From positions 2,432,001-2,496,000 of the forward strand of contig OX638340.1 in the NCBI GenBank assembly GCA_951812955.1: 64,000 nucleotides of DNA, given 5' to 3'. The notes beneath the pieces are model-generated. The model was given only the letters and a program-made list of their open reading frames with translations, made no database searches and was not told where the DNA came from. This document shows positions 1-57,194 of the stretch, piece by piece (positions within the stretch are counted from its first letter, which is position 1; every line of letters begins with the position of its first letter). Source of the stretch: an uncultured Gemmatimonadota bacterium. Lineage in GTDB: Bacteria > JAAXHH01. Position numbers and translations under genes: made by a program.

Positions 1-1412
1 TCGACGAAGCGATAGTCCCTCCGGACCTCCCGTACCCACCATCCACCGCTGACCAGGTGTTCTGGGGGCGGACCGGGACCCGAAGGCGCCTGCCAGTGCA
101 CGGGCTGGCCTTCCAGGACGCGGGGACTGGCGTGGGCGCGCCGCACCAGGGAACGCACGGCGACGGGCCGGGGACTGGCCGCTGCGAGCTTGCCGAAGGG
201 CCGCCACGCGAAACGGGCCTCCGGCAGGTGCGCCGAGGCCAACCGGGCCGTGAGGACCGAATCGGGGCCGAACTCGGCGCGGACCCGCGCCAGGGCCCGC
301 ATGGCCGACCCGGTATCGCGGTCCGGATTCTCCTGCAGCAGGTTCAGTTTATCGGCGGTGACGCCCACGGCCTCCACCTCGAGGGCCAACTCCACCGGGG
401 GAAAGGGGAAGGAGACCGTTTCCAGATGCAGAACCACCAGCTCCAGCAGGATCTTCGCGTCCAGCGTCGGTTCGGCCGCCTGGACCCGGCAGCGGTGCCG
501 CGTTCCGTTCTCCTGCCGGAACGCCATCTGGAGGGCGGCGGCCGCCTGGTATCTTTCACCCGCGGCCTTCAGCAGGGGCGCCAGCAGTTGGGACACCCGG
601 AACAGGAGGCCCCGGGCATCGGACTCGTTATCGTCCAGTTCCATCCGGGCCTGGAGCGGTTCGGGAAGCGCCCGGGGCTGGAGGGGCAGGGGGCGGTCAC
701 CCGTCGCGAAGCGGTAGAGTTCCCTCGCCTGCTCGCCGAGATGCCGGGCGATACGCTCCCCGGGAAGCGCTAGGAAGTCCCCCACGGTATGCACGGCCAG
801 CTTGTCCAGCCGCTCCCGCAGTTTCGGCTCGAGTTGCAGGTGCACCAGCCCCACCTTGCGGTATTCGGCTTCCTCGGCTTCCACGGACGGGAGTACGATT
901 ACCCCGTTCCTCGCTCTGGCGACGGCATAGGCGCCGAAACGGCCGAAACCGACCACGACGCTCGCCGAAAACTCCAGCGCGGTGAGGGCGGCGTGCATCT
1001 GTCCGGCCCAGTCCTCCAGCGACACGTAGAGCCAGTCCAGCCCCCCCGCGTCCACCCAGAAGATCCCCGGTTCCTCCCCGCTCGGTTCCACCCGGGGGCT
1101 GAAGCGATCCAGCGCGCCGTGGACCTGCCGGACTGCGGCCCCGACCTCCTCCTCCGAAACCGTCCCGGCGCACAGGCAGCGATCCAGGGAGAGGGCCGCG
1201 GCGTACCGCATGCCCGGCCGGATCCCGCCCCGGACGGCCGCGTCGTTGAGCCACAGGATGGGGCTCAGGGGTTTTTCTTCCTCTACCACCACCACCGGTC
1301 TCTCCCGCCACTGCGGATGGCTCCGCAGCAGGAGCTGCAGCGGCAGCGCCCGAATGTTAATGCAGGCCGTCCGGCCCGCGGCAGATTTCGGTGTGGCGCC
1401 AGCCCGGTCCAT
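1..1412 (-). CDS. imuB: ImuB-like Y-family DNA polymerase (5' portion; ORF runs off the window start, so it is absent from the ORF track)
   Basis: Manual minus-strand translation from the ATG at 1412..1410 gives MDRAGATPKSAAGRTACINIRALPLQLLLRSHPQWRERPVVVVEEEKPLSPILWLNDAAVRGGIRPGMRYAAAALSLDRCLCAGTVSEEEVGAAVRQVHGALDRFSPRVEPSGEEPGIFWVDAGGLDWLYVSLEDWAGQMHAALTALEFSASVVVGFGRFGAYAVARARN... with no stop down to at least ~nt 800. The N-terminal pattern (LPLxxLL...VVVVEE...PILWLNDAA...GIRPGMRxAAA) matches ImuB proteins. It sits downstream of lexA-imuA and overlaps the imuA 3' end by ~55 nt. Confidence 0.6.
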   Translation of the reverse strand, partial: MDRAGATPKSAAGRTACINIRALPLQLLLRSHPQWRERPVVVVEEEKPLSPILWLNDAAVRGGIRPGMRYAAALSLDRCLCAGTVSEEEVGAAVRQVHGALDRFSPRVEPSGEEPGIFWVDAGGLDWLYVSLEDWAGQMHAALTALEFSASVVVGFGRFGAYAVARARNGVIVLPSVEAEEAEYRKVGLVHLQLEPKLRERLDKLAVHTVGDFLALPGERIARHLGEQARELYRFATGDRPLPLQPRALPEPLQARMELDDNESDARGLLFRVSQLLAPLLKAAGERYQAAAALQMAFRQENGTRHRCRVQAAEPTLDAKILLELVVLHLETVSFPFPPVELALEVEAVGVTADKLNLLQENPDRDTGSAMRALARVRAEFGPDSVLTARLASAHLPEARFAWRPFGKLAAASPRPVAVRSLVRRAHASPRVLEGQPVHWQAPSGPGPPPEHLVSGGWWVREVRRDYRFV

Positions 1413-1992
1413 GACGTCTGTCCTTCAGGATTTCGATTTCACATTGAAAACGGTCCACCGCCAGGCGGCGGCAGGAGGTCTGGCCCCTCAGGGTGACCAT
1501 CGGCCCCAGCGAAGGCGCCTCCCGGGATTTGGCGGTCAGGCACAGCAGGGCGGCGTGGTGGTCCCGCGCCTGCCGGGCCAGGCGCACCTGCAGCGGCACG
1601 GGGACCCTGGAATCGGCGTGCAGGTCCATCACCACCAGCCCGAATCCACCCGATCGCAGGACCCGGTCCCCCGCCCGCGCCGCGGCCCGGGCGTCCGGTA
1701 CGCGGATGACCACCAGGGCGTCCAAGTCCACGCCGCTCTCCGCCGCGTCCGGCGCGAAGAAGGTGTCCGGCGTTGCCGTGATCCAGGCCGCCGGCTCGCC
1801 CTCGAGCTGGGCGTCCAGCACCAGCCGGAAGGCGGCCGTCAGCAGGGCGGCCCCGGGGACGGACGAGAGCTCGCAGAGCCGCCCGGCCAGCTGGGCCCGC
1901 GACCAGCACGGCTGCTCCTCCCGTTTCTTGACGGGCATACGCGTGAAATAGGGATCGAGATCCTGCAGATCCCGATCCCGCGGGGACGACAT
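1357..1992 (-). CDS. imuA: ImuA-like (SulA/RecA-fold) protein of the SOS mutagenesis cassette
   Basis: 211-aa ORF starting 11 nt after the lexA stop on the same strand. Family call is based on position in a lexA-imuA-imuB arrangement and a RecA/SulA-like P-loop-less fold family pattern (…VVMDLHADSRVPVPLQVRLARQAR…). Not a strong sequence call. Confidence 0.5.
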   Translation of the reverse strand: MSSPRDRDLQDLDPYFTRMPVKKREEQPCWSRAQLAGRLCELSSVPGAALLTAAFRLVLDAQLEGEPAAWITATPDTFFAPDAAESGVDLDALVVIRVPDARAAARAGDRVLRSGGFGLVVMDLHADSRVPVPLQVRLARQARDHHAALLCLTAKSREAPSLGPMVTLRGQTSCRRLAVDRFQCEIEILKDRRHGPGWRHTEICRGPDGLH

Positions 1993-2003
1993 AGTGGTTC
2001 CTT

Positions 2004-2618
2004 TTACTCAACGCTCCGCCGCACCTCGATGACCTTACCCAACAGCGAAAAAGGCGCTCCGTCCTCCCGGGGGATGATCGGACTGAAGGCCTCGTTCTCC
2101 GGATGCAGCTCGACACGGCCGTCCCGCTCCCGGTACCGCTTGACCGTCGCCTCGTCGCCCACCAGGGCCACCACGATGTCCCCCGGACTGGCCGTTGCCT
2201 GCCGACGCACGATCACGATGTCCCCCGGCAGGATGCCGGCATGAAGCATGCTCTCCCCCTCCACGGCCAGCGCGAAGAGCTCATCGTCGTCGAAACGCGT
2301 CTGCACCATGATGTATTCCGGCGGATCCTCCATGGCCTCGGTCAGTTCGCCCGCCTGTACGCGCCCCAGCATGGCGATCAACTGGGGCGGACGGGCCTTG
2401 CCGAACTCCGGCAGCCGGTAACCCCGAGACCTTCCGTCCACCTTGGCGAGCTTCCCCTCGGACACCAGCTTCTCCAGGTGCTGGCGGGCGGACTGGACCG
2501 CCCGGAACCCGAAGGCGCGCTGCACGTCCCGGGTCGTGGGCGGGATCCCGCTTAAGATCCGTTCCCGCACGAAATCGTAGATCTTCTCCCTGGTCTTTCC
2601 AGATGGCGTGTAGGCCAT
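2004..2618 (-). CDS. lexA: LexA repressor (S24 peptidase)
   Basis: MAYTPSGKTREKIYDFVRERILSGIPPTTRDVQRAFGFRAVQSARQHLEKLVSEGKL is a winged-HTH N-domain. The C-domain has the Ser/Lys dyad context (GESMLHAGILPGDIVIV…VKRY). The ATG is at 2618..2616; the 240-aa track ORF is an upstream extension. Confidence 0.9.
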   Translation of the reverse strand: MAYTPSGKTREKIYDFVRERILSGIPPTTRDVQRAFGFRAVQSARQHLEKLVSEGKLAKVDGRSRGYRLPEFGKARPPQLIAMLGRVQAGELTEAMEDPPEYIMVQTRFDDDELFALAVEGESMLHAGILPGDIVIVRRQATASPGDIVVALVGDEATVKRYRERDGRVELHPENEAFSPIIPREDGAPFSLLGKVIEVRRSVE

Positions 2619-2757
2619 GATGGTCTCCTCGGGGCCGGGCCGGTGAAAGGGGTTGATGGAAAGGACCAGCGCAACGGAGAAAAGGGCCGGCGCGAAGGGC
2701 CGATGAAACGTGCCGGGGCGCACCAAAACGCATCAACGAGCGCCTGAAAACCCATAA

Positions 2758-2775
2758 AACAGACATTTGTCTGTT
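2758..2775. promoter_or_regulatory. Inverted repeat AACAGACA-TT-TGTCTGTT (ACAG-N8-CTGT) in the lexA / DUF4143-ATPase divergent promoter; candidate LexA operator
   Basis: 8-bp perfect arms separated by 2 nt. It lies ~140 nt upstream of the lexA ATG and ~120 nt upstream of the divergent 2897 gene. It contains CTGT/ACAG tetramers as in CTGT-N8-ACAG SOS boxes, but in the opposite arrangement. Confidence 0.4.
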
Positions 2776-2896
2776 ATGTCAAGCGGTTTTTAGGAAAATT
2801 GGGGATTGGGAACGGGTGAGAACCATTTCACTAACCGCAAGTTCTTTTCAAAATTACAGCTTGCTTATTGATACAATTAACGTTAAATATATTAAT

Positions 2897-4057
2897 ATGA
2901 TGGCAGATTTTTACATTCCTCAAGCGCAACTCACCACACTCGCCCACCTGGTTACACCGGGCAAAGTCGTTGTGGTATACGGACCCAGAAGGGTGGGCAA
3001 GACCACGCTGATCAAGCGTTACATGCGAGAACACGACCCCGACGCCCTGCTCGTAACGGGGGAGGACATCGTGGTCAGGGAGTACCTCGAGAGTCAGTCC
3101 CTGGCCAAATTGACGTCCTTCGTCGGCCGTCGCCGTACACTGATCATCGACGAAGCTCAGCATATCCGGCAAATCGGGCTGAATCTCAAGCTGATCGCCG
3201 ACCACGTCGAAGGGCTTAAGATCATCACCACAGGCTCGTCCTCCTTCGACCTGGCCAATCAGACTGGCGAGCCCCTGACCGGCCGCAAGTATACCCTGCT
3301 GCTTCTGCCACTGGCCCAGTTGGAACTCCAGGAAACCGAATCCGCGCACCAGACACGAGCCCATCTCGAACTTCGGATGATTTACGGGTCGTATCCCGAA
3401 GTCGTCCTCATGGAGTCAAACGAAGACCGGCAACTCTATATCAAGGAACTGATCGCTTCCTATCTATTCAGGGACATACTCCAGCTGGAGGGCATACGCC
3501 ATGCGGACAAGCTGCTCAGGCTGCTGCAACTGGTCGCCTTCCAGATCGGACGCGAGGTATCGACTTCCGAACTGGGCACCCAGTTGGGCATGAAAGCGAA
3601 CACCGTGGATCGATATCTAGACTTACTTGAGAAATCCTATATCCTATACAGCCGCCGCGGGTTCAGCCGCAATCTGCGTAAGGAAATAACCAAGAGCCGA
3701 CGGTATTACTTCTACGACAACGGCATCAGGAACGGGTTGATCAACAACTTCAACCCACTTGCAATGCGGGATGACGCGGGGGAGTTGTGGGAAAGCTACA
3801 TCCTGGTGGAACGATTGAAGCACAACCTCTACAACGGACACCTGGCGGAAAGCTACTTCTGGCGTACATACGATCGCCAGGAAATCGACCTAGTTGAGGA
3901 GTGGGGAGGTCAACTACTTGCCACGGAAATGAAATGGACCGCCAGATCACACCGGGCGCCCGGCGCCTGGCGCAAGGCCTATCCCGAAAGTTCGTTCCAG
4001 GTTGTTCATCCTGAAAACTATCTCAGTTTTATTTCTGAATCACCGGCCGCACCCTAA
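2897..4057 (+). CDS. AAA-superfamily ATPase with C-terminal DUF4143 domain (COG1373-like)
   Basis: Walker A GPRRVGKTT, Walker B LIIDEAQ. The C-terminal region is typical of the ATPase+DUF4143 family. The start is placed at MMADF (2897) after an AT-rich promoter-like stretch. Confidence 0.7.
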   Translation: MMADFYIPQAQLTTLAHLVTPGKVVVVYGPRRVGKTTLIKRYMREHDPDALLVTGEDIVVREYLESQSLAKLTSFVGRRRTLIIDEAQHIRQIGLNLKLIADHVEGLKIITTGSSSFDLANQTGEPLTGRKYTLLLLPLAQLELQETESAHQTRAHLELRMIYGSYPEVVLMESNEDRQLYIKELIASYLFRDILQLEGIRHADKLLRLLQLVAFQIGREVSTSELGTQLGMKANTVDRYLDLLEKSYILYSRRGFSRNLRKEITKSRRYYFYDNGIRNGLINNFNPLAMRDDAGELWESYILVERLKHNLYNGHLAESYFWRTYDRQEIDLVEEWGGQLLATEMKWTARSHRAPGAWRKAYPESSFQVVHPENYLSFISESPAAP

Positions 4058-4077
4058 ACGAACAACAGATCCTTCGT

Positions 4078-4557
4078 TCAACCGGTCTGCGCAATGACCG
4101 TTTCCGGCTCGTGATCGACCGCGAAGTTCACGGACCTGGCGATAAAGCACATGGCATGGGCTTTTTCGTGCAGGCGCTCCGCGGTTTCCGCATCCCTCTC
4201 CGCCGTTATCGTAACACGCGGCCTGAGGGTCACGCGTCCGAACTGGCCCGAGCCGTCCGGATTCAGTTCCATCACGCCTTCCGCCTGGTCTTCGTAGGCC
4301 GTCACCACGACTTTGTTCACCGTGCAAAGATGCAGATACCAGAGCATGTGGCAGGCCGAAAGAGAAGCCAGCAGCATGTCCTCCGGATTATGGCGGGCAG
4401 CGTCGCCCAGGTAGCCAGGATCCGCGGAACCCTTGAGAACCGGCTTGCCCTTGCATGCGATGTCGTAATCACGCGTATAGCCCCTGTACGTGCTCGAACC
4501 GTTGCCCAGATTGCCCTTCCACACAACACCGACCTCGTACGTATGCTGCTTGTTCAT
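4078..4557 (-). CDS. osmC: OsmC/Ohr-family peroxiredoxin-like protein
   Basis: 159 aa. Has OsmC-like conserved Cys pairs (…LSACHML…, …HAMCFIARS…) and the family's size. Confidence 0.75.
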   Translation of the reverse strand: MNKQHTYEVGVVWKGNLGNGSSTYRGYTRDYDIACKGKPVLKGSADPGYLGDAARHNPEDMLLASLSACHMLWYLHLCTVNKVVVTAYEDQAEGVMELNPDGSGQFGRVTLRPRVTITAERDAETAERLHEKAHAMCFIARSVNFAVDHEPETVIAQTG

Positions 4558-4597
4558 GATGCCTCCAGGTTTCTAGTCAATTACGGTGCCTGAACTT

Positions 4598-4620
4598 AAC
4601 TGATCGGTACACGATCAGTT
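4598..4620. promoter_or_regulatory. Inverted repeat AACTGATC-N7-GATCAGTT upstream of osmC
   Basis: Perfect 8-bp arms seen in the AT-rich intergenic region ~40 nt upstream of the osmC start. Could be an operator for an OhrR/MarR-type regulator. Confidence 0.3.
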
Positions 4621-4796
4621 TCAATCGTAGTAACTCACCTGGTGCCATGCAACAGGTTAAAACCTGTGGTGCATCCGGTAGCCTTAAGACCGGGTTGGAT
4701 GTAACGGACAGAAAATTGGAAGAAACTTCTTGTTTGGTCAGATAATTACTTTAATTTTCTGACAATAATTGATACTGAGCATATCGCATATCACGG

Positions 4797-5429
4797 GTGT
4801 TTTCAATGAGCAGTATGGCCGCTAAAATCATGCGTCGGGTGTCCGCTCATCCCACCGGAAAGTGGGTTTGTACACCGAAGGATTTCCTGGACTTCGGGAG
4901 CAGGGAGGCCATTGACCAGGCTCTGTCGCGCCTGGCCAGATCCGATCGGCTGCGGCGCATAGGCCACGGCCTCTATGACAGGCCCAGGTTCAGCAACGTA
5001 CTGAGACGTCCTGCGCCGGTTGATCTGGATGCTGCAGTTAGCGCACTGGCAAGGAGGGACGGCGTTCAGATCCTGCCGGATGGCATGGCCTCTGCGAATC
5101 AGTTGGGACTCACGAACGCCGTACCGGCCAAAGTCAGCTTCGTAACAGATGGCTACTCCAGGACACTTAAAATTGAAGGAAGGACGGTCCGTTTTCGACA
5201 TGCGAGCCCGAGCGTTATGAAATGGGCCGGAAGACCGTCAGCTTCGGTGGTTCAGGCGTTGCGATGGCTTGGTCCCGCCGCGGCCGAGGACGCACGGGTC
5301 CTGTCGACCTTGAGCCGAACCCTCTCGGAAGAAGTGAAGGTCGATTTATTAAGAAACATACGCGATCTGCCGGGATGGGTATTGCCGCTGTTGCGAGAAA
5401 TAACCACTGAACATCACGACGCAATATGA
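4797..5429 (+). CDS. abiEi: AbiEi-family antitoxin/transcriptional regulator (type IV TA)
   Basis: The N-terminal region (…AIDQALSRLARSDRLRRIGHGLYDRP…) resembles AbiEi wHTH antitoxins. It is followed 7 nt later by an AbiEii-like ORF. Confidence 0.55.
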   Translation: MFSMSSMAAKIMRRVSAHPTGKWVCTPKDFLDFGSREAIDQALSRLARSDRLRRIGHGLYDRPRFSNVLRRPAPVDLDAAVSALARRDGVQILPDGMASANQLGLTNAVPAKVSFVTDGYSRTLKIEGRTVRFRHASPSVMKWAGRPSASVVQALRWLGPAAAEDARVLSTLSRTLSEEVKVDLLRNIRDLPGWVLPLLREITTEHHDAI

Positions 5430-5436
5430 AAATGGA

Positions 5437-6174
5437 TTGCGTATCTTTCCTCTCCCTTCCTGTCCAGGACAGACGGGACCTCTTCGAGTCAGCGGCAAAC
5501 TGAAAACCGCACTTTCGAGACGAATCGACGAGATCGTCGAAGGAGGTCTTGTCATTCCAGATGAAAGCGACGTCGACGGCCAGACGCTTCTCGTGGAGTA
5601 CCCTACACTTTACCCTGGAGACAGTGTCGCCTACGTGGCGCCACGGGTACGAATCGAGGCAGGGGCGAGATCGGCGCTGGATCCCAACCTGACCCGTACC
5701 ATCAAACCATTCATCGCGGATGAGGTGCGAGACTTGTCTTTGGCAGTGGAAAACATCCGCGTTATCGCACCAGATCGCACGCTCTGGGAGAAGCTGTTGA
5801 TCCTGCATGGGTTGTACTGCGGATATCGGGACGCACAGCGTCTACCGGCAGACAGAGATCGGATATCCCGCCACTACTACGATGTTGCCATGATAACGGA
5901 GACCGAGTCCGGCAGGGCCGCTCTATCCAACCTTGAATTGATGGATTCAGTTCGTAAACACAACCTTATTGCGTTTCGACAGGCCTGGAAGAAGTTCGAA
6001 GAGGCCGTACCTGGACGGGTGAAACTGGTTCCTCAGTTGGAACTGCACATGCTGATCGAGCGGGACTATGAAGCCATGCAGGACATGATCCTGGGTGACG
6101 TCCCGAATTTCAGATGGATCGTGGACCAATTGATGCATGCCGAAGCCATTGTCAATGGAACTACGAGAAGTTAA
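5437..6174 (+). CDS. abiEii: AbiEii/AbiGii-family nucleotidyltransferase toxin (DUF1814), TTG start, possibly N-terminally degenerate
   Basis: …IRVIAPDRTLWEKLLILHG… and …RHYYDVAMI… are typical DUF1814 C-terminal motifs. The ORF begins with TTG. The canonical N-terminal GGTAL-type motif is not obvious (GKLKTAL instead). Confidence 0.55.
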   Translation: MRIFPLPSCPGQTGPLRVSGKLKTALSRRIDEIVEGGLVIPDESDVDGQTLLVEYPTLYPGDSVAYVAPRVRIEAGARSALDPNLTRTIKPFIADEVRDLSLAVENIRVIAPDRTLWEKLLILHGLYCGYRDAQRLPADRDRISRHYYDVAMITETESGRAALSNLELMDSVRKHNLIAFRQAWKKFEEAVPGRVKLVPQLELHMLIERDYEAMQDMILGDVPNFRWIVDQLMHAEAIVNGTTRS

Positions 6175-8106: not shown

Positions 8107-9315
8107 TCACTGTTCGATCCTCGAAGGCGCGTCGTGAAACGCCAGCAGGTCGGGATAGTCGTATGCGTAATGTTCCGGCCGGACCAGTACCCCGTCCCGG
8201 TACAGCGCGGAGACGATGCGGATGGCCTCGGCCAGGAGGCGGTCGGTCTCGCGGATCATCTCATCGCCCTTTGCGAGTTCCGCCCGCACGAGGTTTTCCG
8301 AATGGCACTGCTCGCAGATGCCGGTCATGCGGTCGCGCTCCCGCTGCCAGTCCTCCTGGGTCAGCCGGGCCACGTCGGCCTGCCTGACCACATCCAGTCG
8401 CGGGGTGGGGTTGCCGTCCGGGTCCAGCACGCCAAGTGCCTGGAGGATCGTTGCCCGGTCCTCCGCCCACTGCGGGTCTTCCGGCATGGGAAGTCGGACG
8501 GCCAGGAAACCCCAGGCGGTCCGGACGCCGTGATCTCCCTCGGGCATGTGGCAGGTCTGGCACGTAGGCGCCTGGGCATGCTCGGGCAGCGTGCCGTTCT
8601 GCTTGAGCAGATGCCGCACGCCATGCTTGGAGGACGAGTACATTTCCCACTGGGGATGATCGAACCCCATGTGGCACGTCCTGCACGCCTGGGGCTCCCG
8701 GGCCTCCTTCACAGAAAAGAGATGGCGGGTATGACATACGTCGCAGGACGACAGGCCGAAAAGCCCGTCCTGCGCCTTGATCGTCTTAATCTCCTCTTCG
8801 CTCTTGAGGCCGATGCGGTGGCATCCGCCGCAGCCCTTCATACCCTCAGTCAGGGCCATGGGCAGGAAGTGGGTCGTCGGCATGGCGTTCATGCTGGTCC
8901 AGGCAAGGGCGTGCTTGCCCCCCGCGAACTGTTCCACCTGGATCGGATGGCACGTGGCGCACACGTCCGGGGTCGCGACGCCGGCCAGGGCCACGTCCTC
9001 CTCCGTGCGGTGATCGCCGCCGTGACACATGACGCAGTCCACGCCGTTCGTGCTGTGGGTGCTGAGTTCCCAGTCAATTACGATGCCGGGCGTGGCATCC
9101 TGGTGGCAGGCCACGCAGTCGGACGTGGCCCGCGGTGGATCGGCGGAGGGACCGCAGGCGGCAAGGGACAGCAGGAAGAATGATACGATGAAGAAGGATA
9201 CGATGTTGTTAACAAGGATGGCACGGCATACGCGGTACCTGGTTTTAGCAAGGAAGCGACTCCTGGAAAGCAGAGACGTCAGACTACCGGATTGCCGGGC
9301 CATCTTGTACCTCAT
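8107..9315 (-). CDS. Octaheme c-type cytochrome lipoprotein (HAO/ONR/OTR-like multiheme family)
   Basis: Lipoprotein-type signal (…FFLLSLAACG). Eight CxxCH motifs (CVACH, CVMCH, CATCH, CGGCH, CDVCH, CRTCH, CQTCH, CEQCH) within ~340 residues. It sits immediately upstream of the NrfH-like quinol-dehydrogenase-type gene. Confidence 0.8.
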   Translation of the reverse strand: MRYKMARQSGSLTSLLSRSRFLAKTRYRVCRAILVNNIVSFFIVSFFLLSLAACGPSADPPRATSDCVACHQDATPGIVIDWELSTHSTNGVDCVMCHGGDHRTEEDVALAGVATPDVCATCHPIQVEQFAGGKHALAWTSMNAMPTTHFLPMALTEGMKGCGGCHRIGLKSEEEIKTIKAQDGLFGLSSCDVCHTRHLFSVKEAREPQACRTCHMGFDHPQWEMYSSSKHGVRHLLKQNGTLPEHAQAPTCQTCHMPEGDHGVRTAWGFLAVRLPMPEDPQWAEDRATILQALGVLDPDGNPTPRLDVVRQADVARLTQEDWQRERDRMTGICEQCHSENLVRAELAKGDEMIRETDRLLAEAIRIVSALYRDGVLVRPEHYAYDYPDLLAFHDAPSRIEQ

Positions 9316-11799: not shown

Positions 11800-13023
11800 T
11801 CACTCCATGTTCATCGCATCCACCGGGCTCAGCTGCGAAGCCTTCAAGGCGGGATATATTCCGGCACATAGACCTATTGCCAGTGAGATCGCCAGCGACA
11901 AGAGGATATTGGAAACCGACGTACCAGTCGTGAAAGTGAGATCCAACACCTGATTCAATACGAACGAGAAAACCGATCCAAGGCCCAGTCCCAGCAATAT
12001 CCCCAGTAACCCCCCTAAAGCACTGATACCTATGGCTTCCAGCGTGAATTGATTCACGATATCGACGTGTCTGGCTCCTACTGACTTCCTAATACCTATT
12101 TCCCGCCTTCGTTCCGTTACGGAGACCAGCATCATATTCATGATCCCGATTCCACCCACCATCAGTGAGATGCCCGCCACGGCGGCAATCGCCGACTTAA
12201 CGGCGTTAATCACACCTCCTATCTGGTCCATTGCGTTTTTTCCGCTGACTATGTCAAATCCGGGCGCATCACCATGGATTGTCTTCAAGGCTGCCTCAAT
12301 GTCATCCACCGCAATTTCCATGACACTCGAATCCACTACCTTGATGGTCAAAAGGTCGAAGCCTTCATGGCCAAGCATCCTTTTCTGGACCGTCGTTATC
12401 GGAACGAAGACCCGGTTGCCCCAACTTTCATTGAAAACAATCTTTGGCTTCATGACGCCGATCACGGCAAATCTCTGACCATTCAGTTTCACTTCCTTGC
12501 CGACCGGATTGGTATCGTCAAACAATCTAGCGGCCAGTTCATCGCCCAGTACACATACTTTTCGCCAGCGCTTGACGTCGCGGTCGGTAATGAATCGACC
12601 CGTGGAAACCGACCACTGGTACATCTCCGGAAATGAAGGCGTCGTGCCGTACAACATCCCTCCATGCGACGTTTTTGCGAATCTGAGATCTACATTCAAT
12701 GTCGCGGCGGGGACCAATTGGCGCACGGCGCTCGATCTTCTCCCGATTTCCAGCATATCCTGCCAGACAAGATGCTCGTAATCGGATACAGGCATCCAAC
12801 TTCCTTCCCTATTTTCGTATCTCGATGGACTCACCCACACCATGGAGCCGCCACGTACGGATTCGAATTCATCCATCACCATGTCGTGAAGCCCCTCTCC
12901 AATCACGATGATGCCTGTTACAGCGCCAATGCCGACCGCAATCCCCAGCAGCGTCAGGACCGAACGCAGCCTGTAGTGAACGAGATTGGTAAACACCGTG
13001 TGGACATGGTGCGCTAAAGACAT
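11800..13023 (-). CDS. MacB/FtsX-type ABC transporter permease (YknZ-like), no fused or adjacent ATPase
   Basis: N-terminal TM1 ([18 protein letters not shown]), a large periplasmic domain, and three C-terminal TM helices with the FtsX motif region (…[14 protein letters not shown]…). No Walker motifs. Confidence 0.8.
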
Positions 13024-13045: not shown

Positions 13046-14260
13046 CTATTGGTGTTTCGATTTCAGCGCGATATGAACCGCTCTTGCATCCGCTGCGATG
13101 TGTGCTCCAGGTTCGATACCGGACAGAATCTCCACATATTCAGTCGATTCAATTCCGATCTCGACCATGGTGGATTCCAGGTATTCTTCCGGACATTTCG
13201 ACATACCAGGGTCCATCGAAGTACAACGATAAACCACGTACGGCTTGCCGGGCACCGACCCAGTAGATGCTGTTTCCTTCTGTTCAGTGGCTATACCTAC
13301 GTAATCACCCATTTCCATGACCGAAGATGCAGGCGCAAGCAGCGAGCCTTCATTCTTCTCCAACACGATGTCGATATCGCAGGACATTCCCTGCTGCAAA
13401 TCCAGCGATGGATTCGATATCACGATTTCGGCATCGAACGTTACAAGCGCACTCCCGGGTTTCCGCACACCGATAGGCGCCAACCGCTCAACATGCCCGC
13501 TGTACAATGTGTCCGGGTAGGCATCGACACGAATCCGTACTTCCTGTCCAGGCCTGACCCTGCCTGCGTCAATTTCCCCAATGGCCGATTTGACGATCAT
13601 TCTGTCCGGATCGCCAATATGAAACATCTCCGTACCGCCGGTATACGAGGAGGTGCCCGATGCTACGACCTCGCCCGTTTCCACCATGCGGGCAACGACG
13701 ATGCCGTTCAAGGGAGACAGGATCCTCACGGCATCATGCGTTCTGTTGGAATCCACCTCAACATTAACCTTCAGTTCAAGTATTTTGAGTTCGAGTTCCG
13801 CCATGTTGAGATTATGATTGGCCTTGGTTTTTTCAATCCTTGCCTTGTCGAATTCCGCAGACGATATCAGGGATCTCTCATGTAATTCACGCTTTCTTTT
13901 AAAGGAGATCTCTTGTTCTGACAGATCTATTCGAGCGCCTTCAACTCTGGCGCGCTGCCGGGACAACTGAAGGGACTGAGACGGATCCGGCTCTATCACG
14001 GCAAGGACATCCCCCTTTGATACCGTATCCCCTACATCGGCGTGAATATGCCTGATTTCCCCGGATATGGTGGGTTTGACCATGACGGTCCTGACAAACT
14101 GGATCGTACCTGTCTCCACCAGGATATCGGAGATCGTTCCATGTTGAACCTGGAGTATTGGGAACGAGGCAACCCGGACCGTGGAACTGTAAACAAAGTA
14201 CAGTAGAACGGCTACGAGAATGCATGCCGATACGCAGACAATGACTATGCGTTTTTTCAT
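13046..14260 (-). CDS. HlyD/MacA-type periplasmic adaptor (membrane fusion protein, YknX-like)
   Basis: N-terminal anchor [22 protein letters not shown], a coiled-coil segment ([19 protein letters not shown]…[12 protein letters not shown]), and barrel/lipoyl motifs (…VKPTISGEI…[13 protein letters not shown]). Confidence 0.8.
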
Positions 14261-19274: not shown

Positions 19275-21884
19275 CTACTCCCCGTCCCCATCCCCCACCG
19301 CATCCAGCAGCGCTTCCCGCGTCATGCCATCGGGAGGCGTGTTTAGGCCCGATTCCTCGCCCGGGTCGGCGACGAGCCAGATGCCGCGCTCGAGGGCGTA
19401 GCCATCTCGTTCGGAGGCCTTTTGGAGGAGTTCCTGCAGGTCTTCGCCATCCATCAGGCCCAGCAGCCCGACGGGGATCACCCGGGCGGAGATTCCCCTT
19501 TCGCGCAGGAAGCCCGCGTACCAGTCGGGAGGACGTTCATAGGAGAACACGAGAAAGGGGCGTTCCGGCGTGCCGGCGCCCCGCCAGAATCCCAGGCGAT
19601 ACCAGTCCGGCCGCAGGGAGCGGACGAAGGCGCCGTGGCGCAGCCGGGGATTGATTTCGTCCATGGACTGCCGGTACAGCGTGCCGAGGCGCTCCGCGTT
19701 GGCTTCCTGGAGCTGGATATAGGTCTCGAGGTATCCCGACTTGAGCAGCCACTCGAACCGGTCTTCCCGGTCCAGTCCCATGAGCGACCTGAATTCGTCG
19801 CCGTGGTACAGACCGTTCCGGACGAGATGCCGGATGAAGTACCGGAAATGCAGGTCGTCGAAGACGTCGGTCGCGGCATAGGCGTGCCGCGGACGCGTGA
19901 TATGGGGATCCCAGTCGTGCACGATGGCCTGCGGGGCCCCCTGGAGGCGGCTGTGCCGGGCGATGGCGCGGGCCGGCTCAAAGAGGTGGCGGTTCAGGTA
20001 TGCCATGTCGAGCCGGGAAGGCAGGTCGACGTCCTCCCCGCGGGCGTTCAGGGCGGCTGCGTAGTCGCCGGTGATCTCGCGCTCGCGAGGGGCGCTGACG
20101 CCGGCGTACCAGGCCGTCGGTGTGCCGCCCACGCGGCTGAGGATGGGCATGGCCCACGATTCGAAACGCACGTCGCCCGTCACCGCCGCGCCCCCGGTGT
20201 AACTGGCAGCCGGCGCCACGGTCCAAAGGAAGTCCATCCCGAGGCCGGGCAACGTTCCGGCGAGTTCGGACACGTGTTCATGCCGGCGGGCGATGAAATC
20301 CCAGACGCCTCGAAGCGGTACGGCATCCGTCGTGCCGGTAGAGAGGCCGGCGTCTGCCGAGTCGCCGGGACTGGGGCGGGCTTCGGCGTCCACGCTGGCG
20401 TCTGAGCCGGAACCCGGACCAGCGCCCAGCTCTGCACTTGAACCTGTGCCGGCTCCGGAACCCGTGCCGTCGCCTGTGCCCGCGCCGTCGCCTGTGCCCG
20501 CGCCGGGTCCGTCATCCGGACCGGACGCCGCGCTGCTGAGCACCCGGACCCGTTCGGGCGCCGCCGTCCTTATGGATACGTTGTTGAGGGAGAAATCCGG
20601 TTTCCGGTTGCCGGGCATCTGGGCCGTGGCATAGTCGTGTTCGGGAGACCAGTCTCCGGGGGAATCGACCAGCGCGCGGACGTAGCTCGCGAGTCCGTCC
20701 ATAAAATCATCCAGTCCTTCGAGATCGGCTTCCCGGGGGCGGATGCCCAGGGGCGGCAAGGGCCGGTCGAGCCCGGATAGCACCTGGCGGTCAACGGCAA
20801 GGACGAATCCCTCGTTCAGCCGGCCGGTCCGTCCCGCGGCCGCTACCGCCATGCGGCCGAAGGTCTCCTCGTCGCCTCGCATGGTTTCCAGGTCTTCGGC
20901 CGACCCGATCTCTTCCCGGATCTCCCGGTCGGCGAAAGCGGCGGCGATGATCTCCACCGGAACGCCCACCAGCGCGTATTCGGATCCCCAGCGGTTTCCG
21001 GACATGCGCACGGTCAGCGTGTCCTTCGCATCTGAAACGCCTTCCACCCTGCCCTTGAATCTCGCCGCGGTCCAGTCCACCGGCACGAGCCGATCCCGGT
21101 TCCGGTACTGCAGGCTGGTCCGCAGCTCCTGGTCGCCGCGCAGCAGCAGTTCGACGTCTTCTCCCGCAATCGCGTCCGCGGGGGAGATACGCAAGGTACG
21201 CCGGACTACGCGGTATTCGGGTTCGGGTTCGGGTGCGGGTTCCGGTTCGATCTCCTCTCCAGGGTCCGGCGCTTGAGGTTCCACGAGCAGCGGCTCGGCA
21301 CCGTCGCCCACGAGCAGCCGGGTGCCGGCGCGGGCGGCCACGCTGCCGTCCATGCCCCGCCCGACCGGGTGGCCGTCGGCAATTTCGAAATAGACCACGG
21401 GGTTCAGGACTGGACTGGTTTCGTGGTCGGCGTTCAGCGCGTGCAGGTTGATGTTCAGACGGGCCAAGATCTCGTTGAACTGATACCGGTCGTGGACGCC
21501 GGGATTGACCTTCCTCCGCTCGCTGTAGGGCCCGTCGGAGGGCATCGCCAGCACGAGCACTTTACCCCGCGACACGAAGTTGATGACCAGGTCCACTTCC
21601 TGGATGCTCATGCCCGGATCGCCGCCGCCCAGAAGCACGATGGCGTCGTAGTCCCGGGCGTCCCGTTCGACCATGGCCGGATAATACGGCCGGTAGTCGA
21701 CGTCGAACCCCGCTTCCGAGAACGCCTGTATCATCCCGGTGTGCTCTTCCGGATAGGCCATGGCGTATTCGACGACGAGCAGGCGGGGATCGCCGTTCGG
21801 CCCGGCGGACGGCTCCTGCCTCGCGCTTGCGGAGTAATTGGGCGCCAGGAATACAATCAGGCAGACAATCAGTTTGATTCGCAT
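19275..21884 (-). CDS. Large secreted protein of unknown function with Gly/Thr/Asp-rich repeat linker
   Basis: Signal peptide MRIKLIVCLIVFLAPNYSASA. 869 aa. The internal low-complexity repeat is GAGTGDGAGTGDGTGSGAGTGS. High GC. Confidence 0.6.
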   Translation of the reverse strand: MRIKLIVCLIVFLAPNYSASARQEPSAGPNGDPRLLVVEYAMAYPEEHTGMIQAFSEAGFDVDYRPYYPAMVERDARDYDAIVLLGGGDPGMSIQEVDLVINFVSRGKVLVLAMPSDGPYSERRKVNPGVHDRYQFNEILARLNINLHALNADHETSPVLNPVVYFEIADGHPVGRGMDGSVAARAGTRLLVGDGAEPLLVEPQAPDPGEEIEPEPAPEPEPEYRVVRRTLRISPADAIAGEDVELLLRGDQELRTSLQYRNRDRLVPVDWTAARFKGRVEGVSDAKDTLTVRMSGNRWGSEYALVGVPVEIIAAAFADREIREEIGSAEDLETMRGDEETFGRMAVAAAGRTGRLNEGFVLAVDRQVLSGLDRPLPPLGIRPREADLEGLDDFMDGLASYVRALVDSPGDWSPEHDYATAQMPGNRKPDFSLNNVSIRTAAPERVRVLSSAASGPDDGPGAGTGDGAGTGDGTGSGAGTGSSAELGAGPGSGSDASVDAEARPSPGDSADAGLSTGTTDAVPLRGVWDFIARRHEHVSELAGTLPGLGMDFLWTVAPAASYTGGAAVTGDVRFESWAMPILSRVGGTPTAWYAGVSAPREREITGDYAAALNARGEDVDLPSRLDMAYLNRHLFEPARAIARHSRLQGAPQAIVHDWDPHITRPRHAYAATDVFDDLHFRYFIRHLVRNGLYHGDEFRSLMGLDREDRFEWLLKSGYLETYIQLQEANAERLGTLYRQSMDEINPRLRHGAFVRSLRPDWYRLGFWRGAGTPERPFLVFSYERPPDWYAGFLRERGISARVIPVGLLGLMDGEDLQELLQKASERDGYALERGIWLVADPGEESGLNTPPDGMTREALLDAVGDGDGE

Positions 21885-22296
21885 GGCATTCGGATCCGGG
21901 GAGATGATATCGACCGACTTACCATATTATAACCATGCGACCTCGATCACAAGCCGATAAACGGCGAAACGCCCGGCAATAACAGGCCATGCTTGCCACC
22001 ATGGTCTCTTGATCGAAGGATACCGGGCGAACGGGTGTCTGTGCGGCGGACGGCTACGTTAGCGGTTACGTTAAAAGTAAACTGCAGACAGGGCAAAATA
22101 TCAGATTTTTAGTGACAAACGTGTGTAATGGTTTCGTTATTTGGAGACTAATACGCGTTTTTTCGCCTTTACAGCGGGATTTCGCGATTTCAAGCGCGCT
22201 TGCGGAAGATCCGCTGCGGAATCGTTCGGCCCGGAGGCTTAATCCGCACCCGGGACGGAATGAACGCGTGGTGGACATCCAGGGGAGGGCAGATAG

Positions 22297-24681
22297 TTGA
22301 GTGCTCGCGACGATCCGGTACCGGAGATACAGGCGTTGCGCGCACGCAACGACGCGCTCAACGCGGCGATCCTGCGTATCAACGCAAGCCTGGACCTCGA
22401 AAACGTCCTCAGGGAGGTCGTGGAGAGTGCCAGGGCGCTCACCGGTGCCCGCTTCGGCGCCATCACCACCATCGACGAGACCGGCGTTCTCCAGGACTTC
22501 GTCTCCTCCGGTCTTACCGAAGAGGATCATCGGCGCATGGTGGACTGGCCGGAAGGGCCGCAACTCTTCGAACACTTCCGCGACCTGCCGGGACCGCTGC
22601 GGCTCGCGGACATGTCCGAATACGTGCGCAAAATCGGTTTTTCGGCTGACCGACTGCCGAACGTCCGTTCCTTCCTGGGTACGCCGATGCGTCTTGGTGG
22701 CGAGCACGTAGGCAGCTTCTACCTGGTCGAAACGGCAGGCGGCGAGGAGTTCACGAATGAGGACGAGGAGGCCCTTGTACTGTTCGCTTCACAGGCGGCC
22801 GTCGCGATTGCCAATGCGCGTGCGCACCGTATCGAGCAGCGTACCAGGGCCGACCTCGAAGCGCTGGTCGAGACCTCTCCGGTGGGCGTCGTGGTGTTCG
22901 ATGCCGTGGCGGGCAGGCGGGTGTCATTCAACCGGGAGGCGAAGCGGATCGTGGAGCACCTGCGCATACCGGGCCGATCCTATGAAGCCATACTCGAGGT
23001 GGCGACCTGCCGCTTCGCCGACGGACGCGAAGTCGCGCTGGACCAGCTCTCGCTGTCCCGTGTGCTCAGTGGTTCCGTGACGGTGAAGGCCGAGGAGATC
23101 GTGCTTTCCACACCCGATGGGCGCAGTGTGACGATGCTCGTAAACGCCACCACGATCCGCGGCGAGGACGGCGCGGTTGCGTCGGTGGTGGTCACCATGC
23201 AGGACCTGGCGCCGCTGCAGGAACTGGACCGGACGCGGGCCGAGTTTCTCAGCATGGTGAGCCACGAACTGCGCGCGCCGCTGACTTCCATCAAGGGGTC
23301 GGCGACGACGGTGTTGAACGCCTCACGGGAACTGGACCCGGCCGAAGTCCGCCAGTTCTTCCGTATCATCGATGAACAGGCCAATCTCATGGACAGCCTG
23401 ATCGGCGATCTGCTCGATGCGGGACGCATCGATACGGGCAGTTTGTCTGTCTCCCCCGAACCCTCCGACGTCGGCGCCCTGGTGGACCAGGCCCGCAACA
23501 CTTTCCTGTCCGGAGGCGTCAGACACGACGTACTCATCGACCTGCCGCCCGATCTGCCCCCGGTTCTCGCCGACAGGAAACGCATCGGGCAGGTGCTGAA
23601 CAACCTGCTGTCCAACGCCGCACGCCACTCGGCGGCGACAACGCCCATCCGGATCTCGGCCGAACGGGACGGCGTATACGTCGCGCTCACCGTTTCCGAC
23701 GAGGGCCGGGGCATAGCGCCGAAACTTCTCGGACGGTTGTTTCGCAAGTACGGGCGCACCGAAGAAGACGCAGGCGTGACCGGAGGCCTGGGGCTGGTCA
23801 TCTGCAAGGGGCTGGTCGAGGCACATGGCGGGCGCATACGGGCCGAAAGCCCGGGCATGGGGAAGGGCACGCGCTTCGTCTTCACGATACCTGTTGCGGC
23901 AAAGGGCGGCGAAGACGCAGCGGACGGCGATGCCCGCCAGTCCTCGGGCATACCTTCCGAAGGCCGCCAGCCGACGCCTGTCCTCGTTGTGGACGACGAT
24001 CCACAGACCCTGCGTTACGTGCACGACATTCTCGCCGATTCGGGCTACTCCGCACTGGTCACGGCCGAACACAGGGATATTTCGAAAATCATCGAAGCGG
24101 AGAAGCCCAAACTGGTTCTGCTCGACCTCATGCTGCCCGAAACCGACGGGATCGAACTCATGCAGACTATTCCCGAGCTTGCCATCCTGCCGGTAATCTT
24201 CATCTCGGGCTATGGACGCGACGAGACGATTGCAAGGGCGCTGGAAGCCGGCGCCGAGGACTATATCGTCAAGCCCTTCTCACCGACCGAGCTCACCGCA
24301 CGGATCGGAGCCATCCTCCGCCGACGGGCCAATCCGGAACGCTTCGTGCTCGGCGAGCTGGCCATCGACTACGACCGCCGCGAGGTCGAAATCGCGGGTC
24401 GGCCGGTGCCGCTTACGGCGACAGAGTACGAGGTGTTGCGTGTGCTTTCGCTCTGCGTGGGGCGAATCGCTACCTACGACGCCTTGCTGCGTGAGATCTG
24501 GGGCAGGCGCGGCTTCGGCGACGCGAGACTCGTACGGGCCATCGTCAAGCGTCTTCGGAGGAAGCTCGGCGACGACGCGAACAATCCGTCCTACATCGCC
24601 AACGTGCGCGGCCTTGGCTACCGCCTGATCCGGCCGGCCGGAACGGGGGAATCGGGCGGACCGGGTGGACAGGGCGGATAG
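22297..24681 (+). CDS. Hybrid sensor histidine kinase / response regulator with C-terminal OmpR-PhoB winged-helix DNA-binding domain (GAF-PAS-HisKA-HATPase-REC-trans_reg_C)
   Basis: TTG start with a GGGGAGGG SD. GAF-like N-domain, H-box SHELRAPLTSIKG, G-boxes (…GGLGLVICKGLVEAHGGRI…), REC domain (VLVVDDDPQTLRYV…LVLLDLMLPETDG…), and a C-terminal …LTATEYEVLRVL…YIANVRGLGYRL winged helix. Confidence 0.85.
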   Translation: MSARDDPVPEIQALRARNDALNAAILRINASLDLENVLREVVESARALTGARFGAITTIDETGVLQDFVSSGLTEEDHRRMVDWPEGPQLFEHFRDLPGPLRLADMSEYVRKIGFSADRLPNVRSFLGTPMRLGGEHVGSFYLVETAGGEEFTNEDEEALVLFASQAAVAIANARAHRIEQRTRADLEALVETSPVGVVVFDAVAGRRVSFNREAKRIVEHLRIPGRSYEAILEVATCRFADGREVALDQLSLSRVLSGSVTVKAEEIVLSTPDGRSVTMLVNATTIRGEDGAVASVVVTMQDLAPLQELDRTRAEFLSMVSHELRAPLTSIKGSATTVLNASRELDPAEVRQFFRIIDEQANLMDSLIGDLLDAGRIDTGSLSVSPEPSDVGALVDQARNTFLSGGVRHDVLIDLPPDLPPVLADRKRIGQVLNNLLSNAARHSAATTPIRISAERDGVYVALTVSDEGRGIAPKLLGRLFRKYGRTEEDAGVTGGLGLVICKGLVEAHGGRIRAESPGMGKGTRFVFTIPVAAKGGEDAADGDARQSSGIPSEGRQPTPVLVVDDDPQTLRYVHDILADSGYSALVTAEHRDISKIIEAEKPKLVLLDLMLPETDGIELMQTIPELAILPVIFISGYGRDETIARALEAGAEDYIVKPFSPTELTARIGAILRRRANPERFVLGELAIDYDRREVEIAGRPVPLTATEYEVLRVLSLCVGRIATYDALLREIWGRRGFGDARLVRAIVKRLRRKLGDDANNPSYIANVRGLGYRLIRPAGTGESGGPGGQGG

Positions 24682-24737
24682 GGCGGATAGGGCGGAGCGA
24701 GCGGACACGGCGACGCTTAGACGGTTCTCCAGGTTCC

Positions 24738-54439: not shown

Positions 54440-54495
54440 GCTTTCCCCTTGAACTTGTTATCCCGCGTTCCGGGCGTGCCAGGCAAGCGCCGGTA

Positions 54496-57185
<2,690 letters not shown>

Positions 57186-57194
57186 GCCCGAGTC

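Follow-up and report, generated by a model that had tools for sequence, protein, structure and literature searches.

A sensor kinase fused to an OmpR/PhoB-class regulator: a probable self-contained two-component system in one 794-residue protein

Can a single gene encode a whole two-component system, from the sensing of a cue through phosphotransfer to the binding of DNA, or have two adjacent genes been joined by mistake? The question is raised by the locus at 22297-24681 of the window (the 64-kb stretch of DNA that was analysed), for which an earlier note had proposed a cytoplasmic signalling unit contained in one polypeptide.

The reading frame and its relatives

The gene and its ribosome-binding region are located as follows.

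22297..24681, + strand: coding sequence of the fused sensor kinase / response-regulator transcription factor (794 aa, TTG start, TAG stop)
22282..22289, + strand: Shine-Dalgarno-like GGGGAGGG, 7 nt 5' of the TTG

The region is a single uninterrupted ORF with zero internal stops, and an in-frame TAG at 22294-22296 directly abuts the TTG start. This agrees exactly with what the earlier note had read from the letters, including the TTG start and its Shine-Dalgarno sequence. Both elements were kept in all ten syntenic orthologs, one of which uses GTG, with a purine-rich Shine-Dalgarno block in each. A downstream start is implausible because residues E10, L14, R15 and R17 are nearly invariant. Frame-0 GC3 was 0.70-0.85 over all domain junctions.

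Homolog searches showed that the fusion is common to a family. The same end-to-end architecture was present in more than 120 close clusters, including 120/120 of the best database clusters, and in approximately 90 of the top 150 cluster representatives at 50% identity, and it runs unbroken through 65 full-length genomic loci that come from many MAGs. Members of the family come from sponge and coral MAGs that belong to several phyla, mostly from sponge-symbiont genomes, and have diverged to 37-45% identity. Genomes that harbor the family often contain several near-identical paralogs. Among the 72,556 plasmids searched there was no full-length fused relative, and plasmid carriage was dropped as a vehicle of transfer. 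The nearest plasmid relatives are adjacent gene pairs encoding an HK and then an OmpR-type RR, in that order. A read-through fusion of such an HK-then-RR pair fits these data and is the most likely origin of the gene.

The same plasmid pairs could be taken as a sign that two adjacent genes were merged only here, by a frameshift or a lost stop in sequencing or assembly, and a few family loci from long-read MAGs in which two or three ORFs replace the single one (L053, L057, L064, L065, L071, and L073) point in the same direction. These split loci are, however, a minority and look derived or erroneous, and the same unbroken architecture and linker recur in independent assemblies of numerous organisms. 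The earlier note had allowed for a frameshift or stop dividing the region into two genes; instead the frame was open, GC3 was even across the junctions, and the fusion was conserved. On the two latter grounds we rejected the artefact, to which we assign next to no chance. The 794-aa gene is real and conserved.

Domains and catalytic residues

A Pfam scan placed all six domains of the 794-aa protein above their gathering cut-offs, in the order GAF-PAS-HisKA-HATPase-REC-wHTH that had been proposed.

22390..22812, + strand: GAF domain, aa 32-172 (Pfam GAF_2, 50.6 bits)
22852..23205, + strand: PAS domain, aa 186-303 (Pfam, 27.9 bits)
23236..23439, + strand: HisKA/DHp domain, aa 314-381 (Pfam, 58.0 bits; cut-off 26.9)
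23263-23265, + strand: codon of the phospho-accepting H323, in the H-box SHELRAPLTSIKG
23572..23898, + strand: HATPase_c catalytic domain, aa 426-534 (Pfam, 88.4 bits)
23899..23979, + strand: kinase-receiver linker of 27 residues, aa 535-561, low-complexity and little conserved
23980..24306, + strand: receiver domain of the OmpR-class terminal type, aa 562-670 (Response_reg, 91.3 bits)
24124-24126, + strand: codon of the phospho-acceptor D610, in the receiver
24397..24627, + strand: Trans_reg_C winged helix, aa 701-777 (Pfam, 72.6 bits; model positions 1-77 of 77)

The motifs quoted earlier for the H-box (SHELRAPLTSIKG, with H323), the receiver (VLVVDDDP, and DLMLPETDG with D610), and the trans_reg_C domain (YIANVRGLGYRL) were all recovered in the protein. 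HATPase_c carries the N-box (N440), the G1 box (D468/G470/G472), F482, and the G2 box (G497-L-G-L), all of them invariant. Key residues of the receiver are D567/D568, D610, S637, Y656, K659-P660, and the alpha5 motif ELxAR..LRR. These receiver residues, together with H323, N440, and the G1 and G2 boxes, are invariant in 50 close sequences. The key residues of kinase and receiver are conserved in 65 broader family members as well, among which SHELR (containing H323) is invariant, and in the full-length winged helix GYR is conserved in the family.

Since the catalytic and phospho-acceptor residues are invariant despite divergence to 37-45% identity, phosphotransfer appears to be under selection. 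The same invariance bears on the possibility that a ligand bound by GAF-PAS alters DNA binding directly and that the protein can do without the chemistry of its kinase and receiver. A soluble protein with sensor and DNA-binding domains does resemble one-component systems in this respect, but a dispensable chemistry is difficult to reconcile with the conservation of all these residues, and we consider such a mode of action most improbable.

No transmembrane helix was found in the protein, its highest mean Kyte-Doolittle value over 19 residues (1.57) being located inside the REC core, and the description of the protein as membrane-less thus held. With the residues intact, no membrane anchor, and a conserved fusion, the proposal of a cytoplasmic signalling unit in one polypeptide is supported at the sequence level. 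An AF2 monomer model of the full-length protein had a pTM of 0.36, with pLDDT values below 50 at residues 535-557 and of 50-57 in the DHp domain. Because of the low pTM the docking of the receiver on the DHp domain could not be read from this model, which was dropped for that use.

The kinase core found its best solved matches in HK853 (3dge/2c2a, E ~1e-38). In the regulator half, residues 562-776 match the MtrA model of NCBIfam end to end (172 bits), and residues 562-781 align end to end with the MtrA structure 2gwr (E 1.4e-36), followed by RegX3, BaeR, and KdpE. Judged by these alignments, the REC-wHTH half amounts to a full regulator of the OmpR/PhoB class. The 794-aa protein is an ortholog of no named regulator, as it scores under every NCBIfam equivalog cut-off. 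With the OmpR/PhoB regulators (MtrA, RegX3, BaeR, KdpE, PhoB) it shares the active-site and switch residues of the receiver, the alpha4-beta5-alpha5 motif, and the winged helix. Those regulators are stand-alone proteins of approximately 225-240 aa that are phosphorylated in trans by a separate, usually membrane-bound kinase, whereas here the regulator module forms the C-terminal third of a kinase chain.

The TorS, LvrA, and HrmK models match residues 304-679 of the protein, and in the hybrid kinases CckA, TorS, RcsC, and ArcB a kinase core likewise leads into a receiver at the C-terminus of the same chain. Their receivers are intermediate ones without an output domain, and they need HPt proteins and a separate terminal regulator. 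If the receiver of the 794-aa protein acted in this way, it would pass the phosphate to an HPt protein or another regulator, and the winged helix would be vestigial or secondary. This is the usual role of C-terminal receivers in hybrid kinases, which are Rec-inter "by definition" in the framework that we used for receiver classification (PMC9981736). The receiver described here, in contrast, bears the signature of the OmpR-class terminal type (S637/Y656 and alpha4-beta5-alpha5), which is invariant in the family, and it is followed by its own conserved DNA-binding domain. The Pfam scan detected no HPt domain in the protein, and the 64-kb window contains no further two-component gene. We regard a phosphorelay as very unlikely, and the reading of the receiver as the terminal one, with its own output domain, is preferred.

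Sensor region and gene neighbourhood

The GAF domain shares homology with GAF-A of DevS/DosT, a heme-binding domain (E 2.7e-23 to 2.4e-20; PDB 2y79, 2w3d, 4ynr, and 2vzw). In GAF-A of DevS, His149 is the proximal ligand of the heme iron (PMC4082495). Its position is occupied by R119 in the 794-aa protein, and Y142 aligns with the distal Tyr171. Across the family the column equivalent to His149 is His in only 12/66 members, and that equivalent to Tyr171 is Tyr in 46/66 and Phe in 13/66. With R119 replacing His149, DevS-like heme sensing by the 794-aa protein is unsupported; it stays conceivable for the few paralogs with FPENHPPMKTFL. DevS (DosS) and DosT of Mycobacterium resemble the protein in GAF-A homology, in the distal Tyr, and in being soluble kinases. 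DevS combines two GAF domains with a HisKA_3 kinase and a separate regulator of the NarL type, DosR, whereas the protein described here has GAF-PAS, a HisKA kinase, a fused OmpR-type regulator, and Arg in place of the proximal His. Among copies that are otherwise 90-99% identical, the DevS-type pocket residue of the GAF domain is H, R, Q, or L.

The PAS domain is strongly conserved in the family at D242, G243, P273, G275, N283, Q302, and D303, and has no close relative among solved structures. A LOV/flavin reading of its TCRFADG motif was rejected: C238 is Cys in only 14/66 members (Phe in 31), and zero LOV structures matched the domain at E <= 10.

No other HK or RR was detectable in the 64-kb window, which contains one copy of the fused gene, and the neighbours of this gene are non-signalling genes. 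The system is therefore a self-sufficient orphan. This is relevant to a branched or cross-wired arrangement, in which the kinase would also serve separate regulators, or in which the receiver would be fed by other kinases or acetyl phosphate and the fused kinase would act mainly as a phosphatase. Near-identical paralogs in the same genomes could cross-talk or heterodimerise, and phosphatase-dominant sensors exist (PMC12469816). Tethering, on the other hand, keeps the cognate receiver at a very high local concentration, and the gene analysed here is the sole copy in the window and has no partner genes nearby. Cross-wiring is in our judgement unlikely, and we retain the reading of an insulated, self-contained system.

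Upstream of the gene, the divergent intergenic region and the gene beyond it contain the following features.

19275..21884, - strand: divergent gene of an 869-aa protein with a signal-peptide-like N-terminus; candidate target
22055..22073, + strand: direct repeat TACGTTA-N5-TACGTTA with a 12-bp period, in the divergent intergenic region
22113..22126, + strand: invariant 14-mer TGACAAACGTGTGT, 184 nt 5' of the start; candidate promoter/operator

The 869-aa gene is syntenic in 10/10 ortholog loci (69-92% identity), and its product has no relative in Pfam, NCBIfam, or PDB. In other clades of the family, 20/63 loci have a giant fn3/cadherin/LRR gene in the divergent position. The 14-mer, near-palindromic and not plainly a direct repeat, is invariant in 10 orthologous intergenic regions; it was found a single time in each of 9 ortholog loci and in 0/73 other loci. 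We consider it a candidate element for the regulator gene, the divergent gene, or both. As a marker of a wider regulon it was rejected, since the sole other match in the window, with 2 mismatches, is no better than chance. The repeat TACGTTA-N5-TACGTTA had an expectation of 0 in shuffled sequences. Both of its copies are found only in the three closest orthologs, the others having one, and we treat it as a weak candidate for an OmpR-type site. At the scan thresholds applied, no sigma-70-type promoter was detected around the 14-mer or upstream of the gene. A structured RNA in the conserved 5' leader was rejected because the only match was to a miRNA family, at 21 bits against a cut-off of 70. 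In the Dehalococcoidia clade of the family, each locus has one Pho-box-like direct repeat, CTGTGAG-N4-CTGTGAG, located 5' of the regulator gene. By its form this would be the type of site expected for an OmpR-type autoregulator; the repeat is absent from the 64-kb window.

Proposed mechanism and precedents

We propose that the 794-aa protein is a soluble, homodimeric, self-contained two-component system, and hold this to be probable. The N-terminal GAF-PAS region would sense a cytoplasmic cue and control how the HisKA/HATPase_c core autophosphorylates at H323. From H323 the phosphoryl group would then move to D610 within the same polypeptide or dimer, across the flexible 27-residue linker. Switching of S637/Y656 would let the receivers pair via their alpha4-beta5-alpha5 faces, and this pairing would set the two winged-helix domains on DNA repeats and so control transcription. 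The most plausible targets would be the gene's own promoter and the divergent gene of the 869-aa secreted protein. What we infer is that phosphotransfer takes place in cis or inside the dimer, that dimerisation drives DNA binding, and which genes are the targets. The fusion would fix a 1:1 stoichiometry and insulate the pathway against cross-talk.

The closest precedent is the HTCS class of Bacteroides (BT4124, BT1754), in which a sensor, HisKA/HATPase, a receiver, and a DNA-binding domain are likewise combined in one polypeptide, and in which the phosphorylation state of the fused receiver governs binding to DNA (PMC11253607). The class is paralog-expanded, and each copy lies beside the locus that it controls. 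HTCS are anchored in the membrane, have a large sensor on the periplasmic side, and use an AraC/XylS (HTH_18) output, whereas the 794-aa protein has no transmembrane segment, cytoplasmic GAF-PAS sensors, and an OmpR-type winged helix; the Pfam scan gave no match to HTH_18 in it at E <= 0.1. Because the REC-DBD half of the 794-aa protein is a genuine OmpR/PhoB regulator, the fusion is independent of that in HTCS. By analogy with HTCS, two DNA-binding domains tethered by a kinase dimer might need an inhibitory mechanism.

According to the earlier note, an output domain is normally missing from hybrid kinases. This stands as a rule, but HK-REC-DNA-binding fusions are established in HTCS (PMC11253607), and fusion of HK and RR genes has been described as a route of evolution (Cock & Whitworth 2007, as cited in PMC12471899). 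For both reasons the concept of the fusion is not new. The soluble GAF-PAS/OmpR-type version is an uncharacterised variant of these proteins, and no characterised HK-REC-OmpR fusion was found in the literature searched. The Lysobacter "HyTCS" proteins HtsH1-3 were rejected as an OmpR-type precedent, as they are membrane proteins whose listed domains include no DNA-binding domain.

To our knowledge, the fused kinase-regulator class has so far been studied only in membrane-bound, AraC-type form. Such fusions are probes of wiring specificity, stoichiometry, and insulation in two-component signalling. Since a soluble OmpR-type version should be purifiable whole, the full path from signal to DNA could be reconstituted with one protein, and synthetic biology would gain a compact part in such an all-in-one soluble regulator.

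More tentatively, and with doubts outweighing our confidence, the family may represent in sponge symbionts what the HTCS-PUL arrangement is in Bacteroides. It would have spread between phyla that have the sponge or coral holobiont in common and expanded by paralogy, each copy switching a divergent gene for a surface or secreted product, and the paralogs being tuned to different cytoplasmic cues via the GAF pocket residue. If this is true, the targets would be giant "eukaryotic-like" fn3/cadherin/LRR proteins in most clades and the 869-aa secreted protein at this locus. As the family occurs chiefly in uncultured sponge symbionts and lies beside surface genes of the host-interaction type, it could give a first handle on the regulation of symbiosis genes. 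For the 794-aa gene itself the result is more modest, namely a well-supported, uncharacterised regulator.

A minor observation concerns the 3' end of this gene.

24634..24706, no strand assigned: 9-bp tandem repeat CCGGGCGGA, approximately 8 copies, encoding a Gly-rich C-terminal tail and crossing the stop codon

Protein P0001, 98% identical to the 794-aa protein, has a different C-terminal tail.

Reading frame and domains of the 794-aa regulator

The earlier note had read a single 794-aa ORF with a TTG start and a Shine-Dalgarno (SD) sequence, and our data bear this out.

22297-24681, +: CDS of the regulator, single ORF, TTG start
7 nt upstream of the TTG start, +: SD-like GGGGAGGG, from sequence inspection
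24634-24706: 9-bp tandem repeat CCGGGCGGA, about 8 copies, encoding the Gly-rich C-terminal tail and extending past the stop codon

An in-frame TAG directly 5' of the TTG makes an upstream extension of the ORF impossible. The start codon is TTG in ten syntenic orthologous loci, except for GTG once, with a purine-rich SD in the same place, and residues 10-17 are nearly invariant in the protein alignment. Together with the TAG and the SD, these features fix the start of the regulator. Across both fusion junctions GC3 in the coding frame was 0.70-0.85, and there were no internal stops. The sequence and length of the C-terminal tail vary among close orthologs. The Kyte-Doolittle maximum (19-residue window) averages 1.57 and is located in the receiver core; therefore no transmembrane helix is predicted, a point the earlier note had marked for checking.

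The Pfam gathering score was used as the cut-off for domain calls. All the domains that the earlier note had listed exceeded it, and every sequence motif cited there was found in the protein.

aa 32-172: GAF
aa 186-303: PAS
aa 314-381: HisKA
aa 426-534: HATPase_c
aa 562-670: Response_reg
aa 701-777: Trans_reg_C, the OmpR-type winged helix (wHTH)

[quoted passage not shown] Whole MtrA, PhoB, RpaB, CseB, and YycF models match residues 562-776 (all below equivalog cut-offs), and the MtrA structure matches the regulator half over its full length (E 1.4e-36), ahead of RegX3, BaeR, and KdpE. In a framework of terminal versus intermediate receivers, hybrid-kinase receivers are counted as phosphorelay intermediates "by definition", and OmpR-class terminal receivers are marked by Ser/Thr-Tyr coupling and an alpha4-beta5-alpha5 dimer face (PMC9981736). 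The receiver studied here carries the terminal OmpR-class signature, and the regulator is therefore not a phosphorelay-type hybrid kinase. Its kinase core is of the standard HisKA type and nearest to HK853.

The GAF domain is a homolog of GAF-A, the heme-binding domain of DevS/DosT (E 2.7e-23). When residues were mapped by the DevS construct numbering of PMC4082495, the distal Tyr171 aligned with Y142 and the proximal heme ligand His149 with R119 (window 22651-22653), so DevS-like heme ligation is not expected. The PAS domain is strongly conserved across family members; no informative solved relative of it was found in structure comparison. An AF2 monomer built from a 50-sequence alignment backs the single-domain folds (pLDDT 82-89 for GAF and 84-90 for REC), and its pTM of 0.36 makes the inter-domain geometry unusable.

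Conservation and distribution of the fusion

The earlier note had named one scenario that would overturn its reading: two adjacent genes, revealed by a frameshift or stop on resequencing. It had also proposed a search for homologs with the same fusion. In a 5.8-billion-protein search, all of the best 120 clusters were full length (approximately 770-840 aa) at 68-98% identity and showed the regulator's Pfam domains. An exhaustive search covered 1.84 billion 50%-identity representatives. Among the best 150 matches, down to E 1e-124, about 90 align unbroken from approximately residue 10 to 780 (37-58% identity, 770-830 aa), and PAS-HK-REC-wHTH is retained in N-terminally extended variants of 987-1327 aa. 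When one genome was scanned per species, a search that reaches only relatives having exact peptide words in common with the query, 65 of 79 loci encoded an unbroken full-length relative. The conserved fusion in clusters, representatives, and loci excludes two genes joined by error; split loci are a handful, in long-read MAGs.

The chemistry is conserved as well. SHELR (H323), the N-box, G1, GLGL, the DD pair, D610, KPFS, and GYR are kept in the 65 full-length family sequences. Invariant in the 50 closer sequences are H323, N440, D468/G470/G472, G497-L500, D566-568, D610, S637, Y656, K659-P660, and the alpha5 motif ELxAR..LRR.

Copies at L053, L057, L064, L065, L071, and L073 are split into 2-3 ORFs, either as pseudogenes or through long-read errors. 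Variants among L058/L059; L040, L045, L049; and L034, L037, L067, L074 include GAF-less 612-aa forms, copies duplicated in tandem, and an additional gene upstream (420-460 aa) that matches REC-wHTH in its C-terminal half.

All 79 of the best genomic loci came from MAGs and none from cultured isolates. The MAGs that carry full-length relatives with 45-95% identity (L001-L079) bear the names of at least five phyla. The labels were Gemmatimonadota/Longimicrobiales, Latescibacterota, Dehalococcoidia and other Chloroflexota, Acidimicrobiia (including 'Ca. Poriferisocius'), Acidobacteriota, Pseudomonadales, and Rhodothermales. Many loci derive from sponge/coral holobiont bin sets (APA_, IRC1_, RHO_, COS4_, Plut_, Langseth, 'Ca. 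Poriferisocius'). The prefixes APA, IRC, RHO, and COS denote sponge hosts of Robbins et al. 2021 (PMC8163846), an assignment that covers the prefixed bins, many other MAGs carrying UUID names only. Since the regulator is 95% identical to a protein in an Aplysina-type Gemmatimonadota bin, the window is probably from a sponge symbiont.

Between phyla, full-length identity is 45-64%, and phyla are partly interleaved in the NJ tree. This pattern is compatible with lateral transfer without proving it, and mis-binning is possible for short-contig bins. Regulators from L006 and L014 ('Candidatus Latescibacterota') are 78% identical to those of L001, L002, and L004 ('Gemmatimonadota'), and these loci have the same order of regulator, upstream 869-aa gene, and downstream GAPDH. 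Some MAG phylum labels are thus probably inconsistent.

Genomic surroundings and proposed mechanism

The regulator gene is an orphan: a tblastn search of the 64-kb window with the full protein detected neither a further kinase nor a further receiver. Its surroundings are core chromosome, with GAPDH and aconitase downstream (convergent) and gyrA, gyrB, and dnaA farther away. The grouping of these three genes (51941-61542) places the window probably near the chromosomal replication origin.

8107-9315, -: multi-heme cytochrome c, 402 aa (Multi-haem_cyto, Cytochrome_C554)
11800-13023: MacB/FtsX-type permease, near the cytochrome gene
13046-14260: HlyD-type membrane-fusion protein, near the cytochrome gene
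19275-21884, -: divergent gene of an 869-aa protein, 412-bp spacer to the regulator
22055-22073: direct repeat TACGTTA-N5-TACGTTA, in the spacer
22113-22126: invariant 14-mer TGACAAACGTGTGT, 184 nt upstream of the regulator start, from ortholog spacer comparison
51941-54439, -: gyrA
54496-56874, -: gyrB
60181-61542, -: dnaA

The divergent pair is kept in 10 of 10 orthologous loci (69-92% identity for the neighbour). The 869-aa protein has a signal-peptide-like N-terminus and a central linker rich in Gly/Thr/Ala/Ser; no relatives were found in Pfam, NCBIfam, or PDB. The 14-mer occurs once per ortholog locus and in none of 73 other loci, and both TACGTTA copies are present only in the three closest orthologs. 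Neither a sigma-70 consensus promoter nor an Rfam family was found in the spacer. In the large Dehalococcoidia clade the regulator spacer holds CTGTGAG-N4-CTGTGAG, a direct repeat with an 11-bp period in Pho-box layout. Each of 22 loci has it a single time, approximately 155-175 nt upstream of the regulator start; the window lacks it. This repeat is a candidate operator of the clade's regulators.

L015:5839-5856, L018:5828-5845, L048:5827-5844, all +: examples of CTGTGAG-N4-CTGTGAG

In these Dehalococcoidia-clade loci, TTGTGA-17 nt-TATAAT comes after the repeat.

With parts list, intact chemistry, solubility, and conservation shown, the steps of a mechanism can be drawn from how HisKA kinases and OmpR-class regulators are known to behave. 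The GAF-PAS module would gate H323 autophosphorylation, and phosphate would pass from H323 to D610, inside the polypeptide or dimer, across a flexible 27-residue linker that is unconserved (pLDDT <50 in the AF2 monomer). Receivers would then dimerise via alpha4-beta5-alpha5, and the winged helices would bind repeated DNA sites. Obvious candidate targets are the conserved divergent gene and the regulator itself (autoregulation).

The closest functional precedent is the Bacteroides hybrid two-component systems (HTCS), in which phosphorylation of the fused receiver governs DNA binding and an inhibitory contact between REC and DBD blocks premature activation (PMC11253607). The sequence supports the earlier note's single-polypeptide signalling unit, but the design principle has precedent in HTCS; joining kinase, receiver, and DNA-binding domain in a single chain is a known concept. 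The soluble GAF-PAS/OmpR-type family represents a distinct variant that was fused independently, and our literature search found no characterised member. Read-through has been described as a route to kinase-regulator fusion (Cock & Whitworth 2007, cited in PMC12471899). On plasmids, the closest relatives are neighbouring genes, kinase first and OmpR-type regulator second, an order consistent with this route; the fused regulator was absent from all 72,556 plasmids searched.

Paralogs and giant neighbours

Several genomes contain two or more regulator copies, some in tandem. In 20 of 63 loci the next gene upstream of the regulator, in divergent orientation, encodes a giant repeat protein, as against only 7 of 63 for the downstream neighbour; a giant repeat gene lies within 6 kb of the regulator in 43 of 64. 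Such genes are generally enriched and laterally transferred in sponge symbionts (PMC8163846), which implies a high background rate behind the 20/63 and 43/64 counts. The arrangement was also seen in independent contig look-ups; no giant repeat gene lies within 6 kb of the window's own regulator.

Locus positions ~1-5800, -: upstream giant in L009-L011, L015, L018, L019, L021, L023-L025, L027, L031, L033, L035, L036, L048, L055, L057, L081, L082

The 19 giants scanned carried fn3 (15), Ig-like (11), cadherin-like (7), and LRR (5) domains, and also SWM and Calx-beta. Regulators 89-99% identical adjoin giants with unrelated proximal 700 aa, even in one genome (L009 vs. L010 on the same contig; also L015 vs. 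L018 and L048, and L019 vs. L027 and L055). Nucleotide identity (92-96%) is limited to the regulator gene and 120-600 bp of the spacer upstream of it; this may reflect gene conversion, recent duplication, or transfer. Among Dehalococcoidia paralogs otherwise 90-99% identical, the DevS His149 column is H, R, Q, or L. L051, L052, L054, and L079 carry the DevS-like FPENHPPMK(T/S)FL and may bind heme. As a hypothesis about the family, these observations on paralogs and their neighbours suggest modular regulator-target pairs with diversified sensing. At least one source annotates a family member merely as "response regulator".
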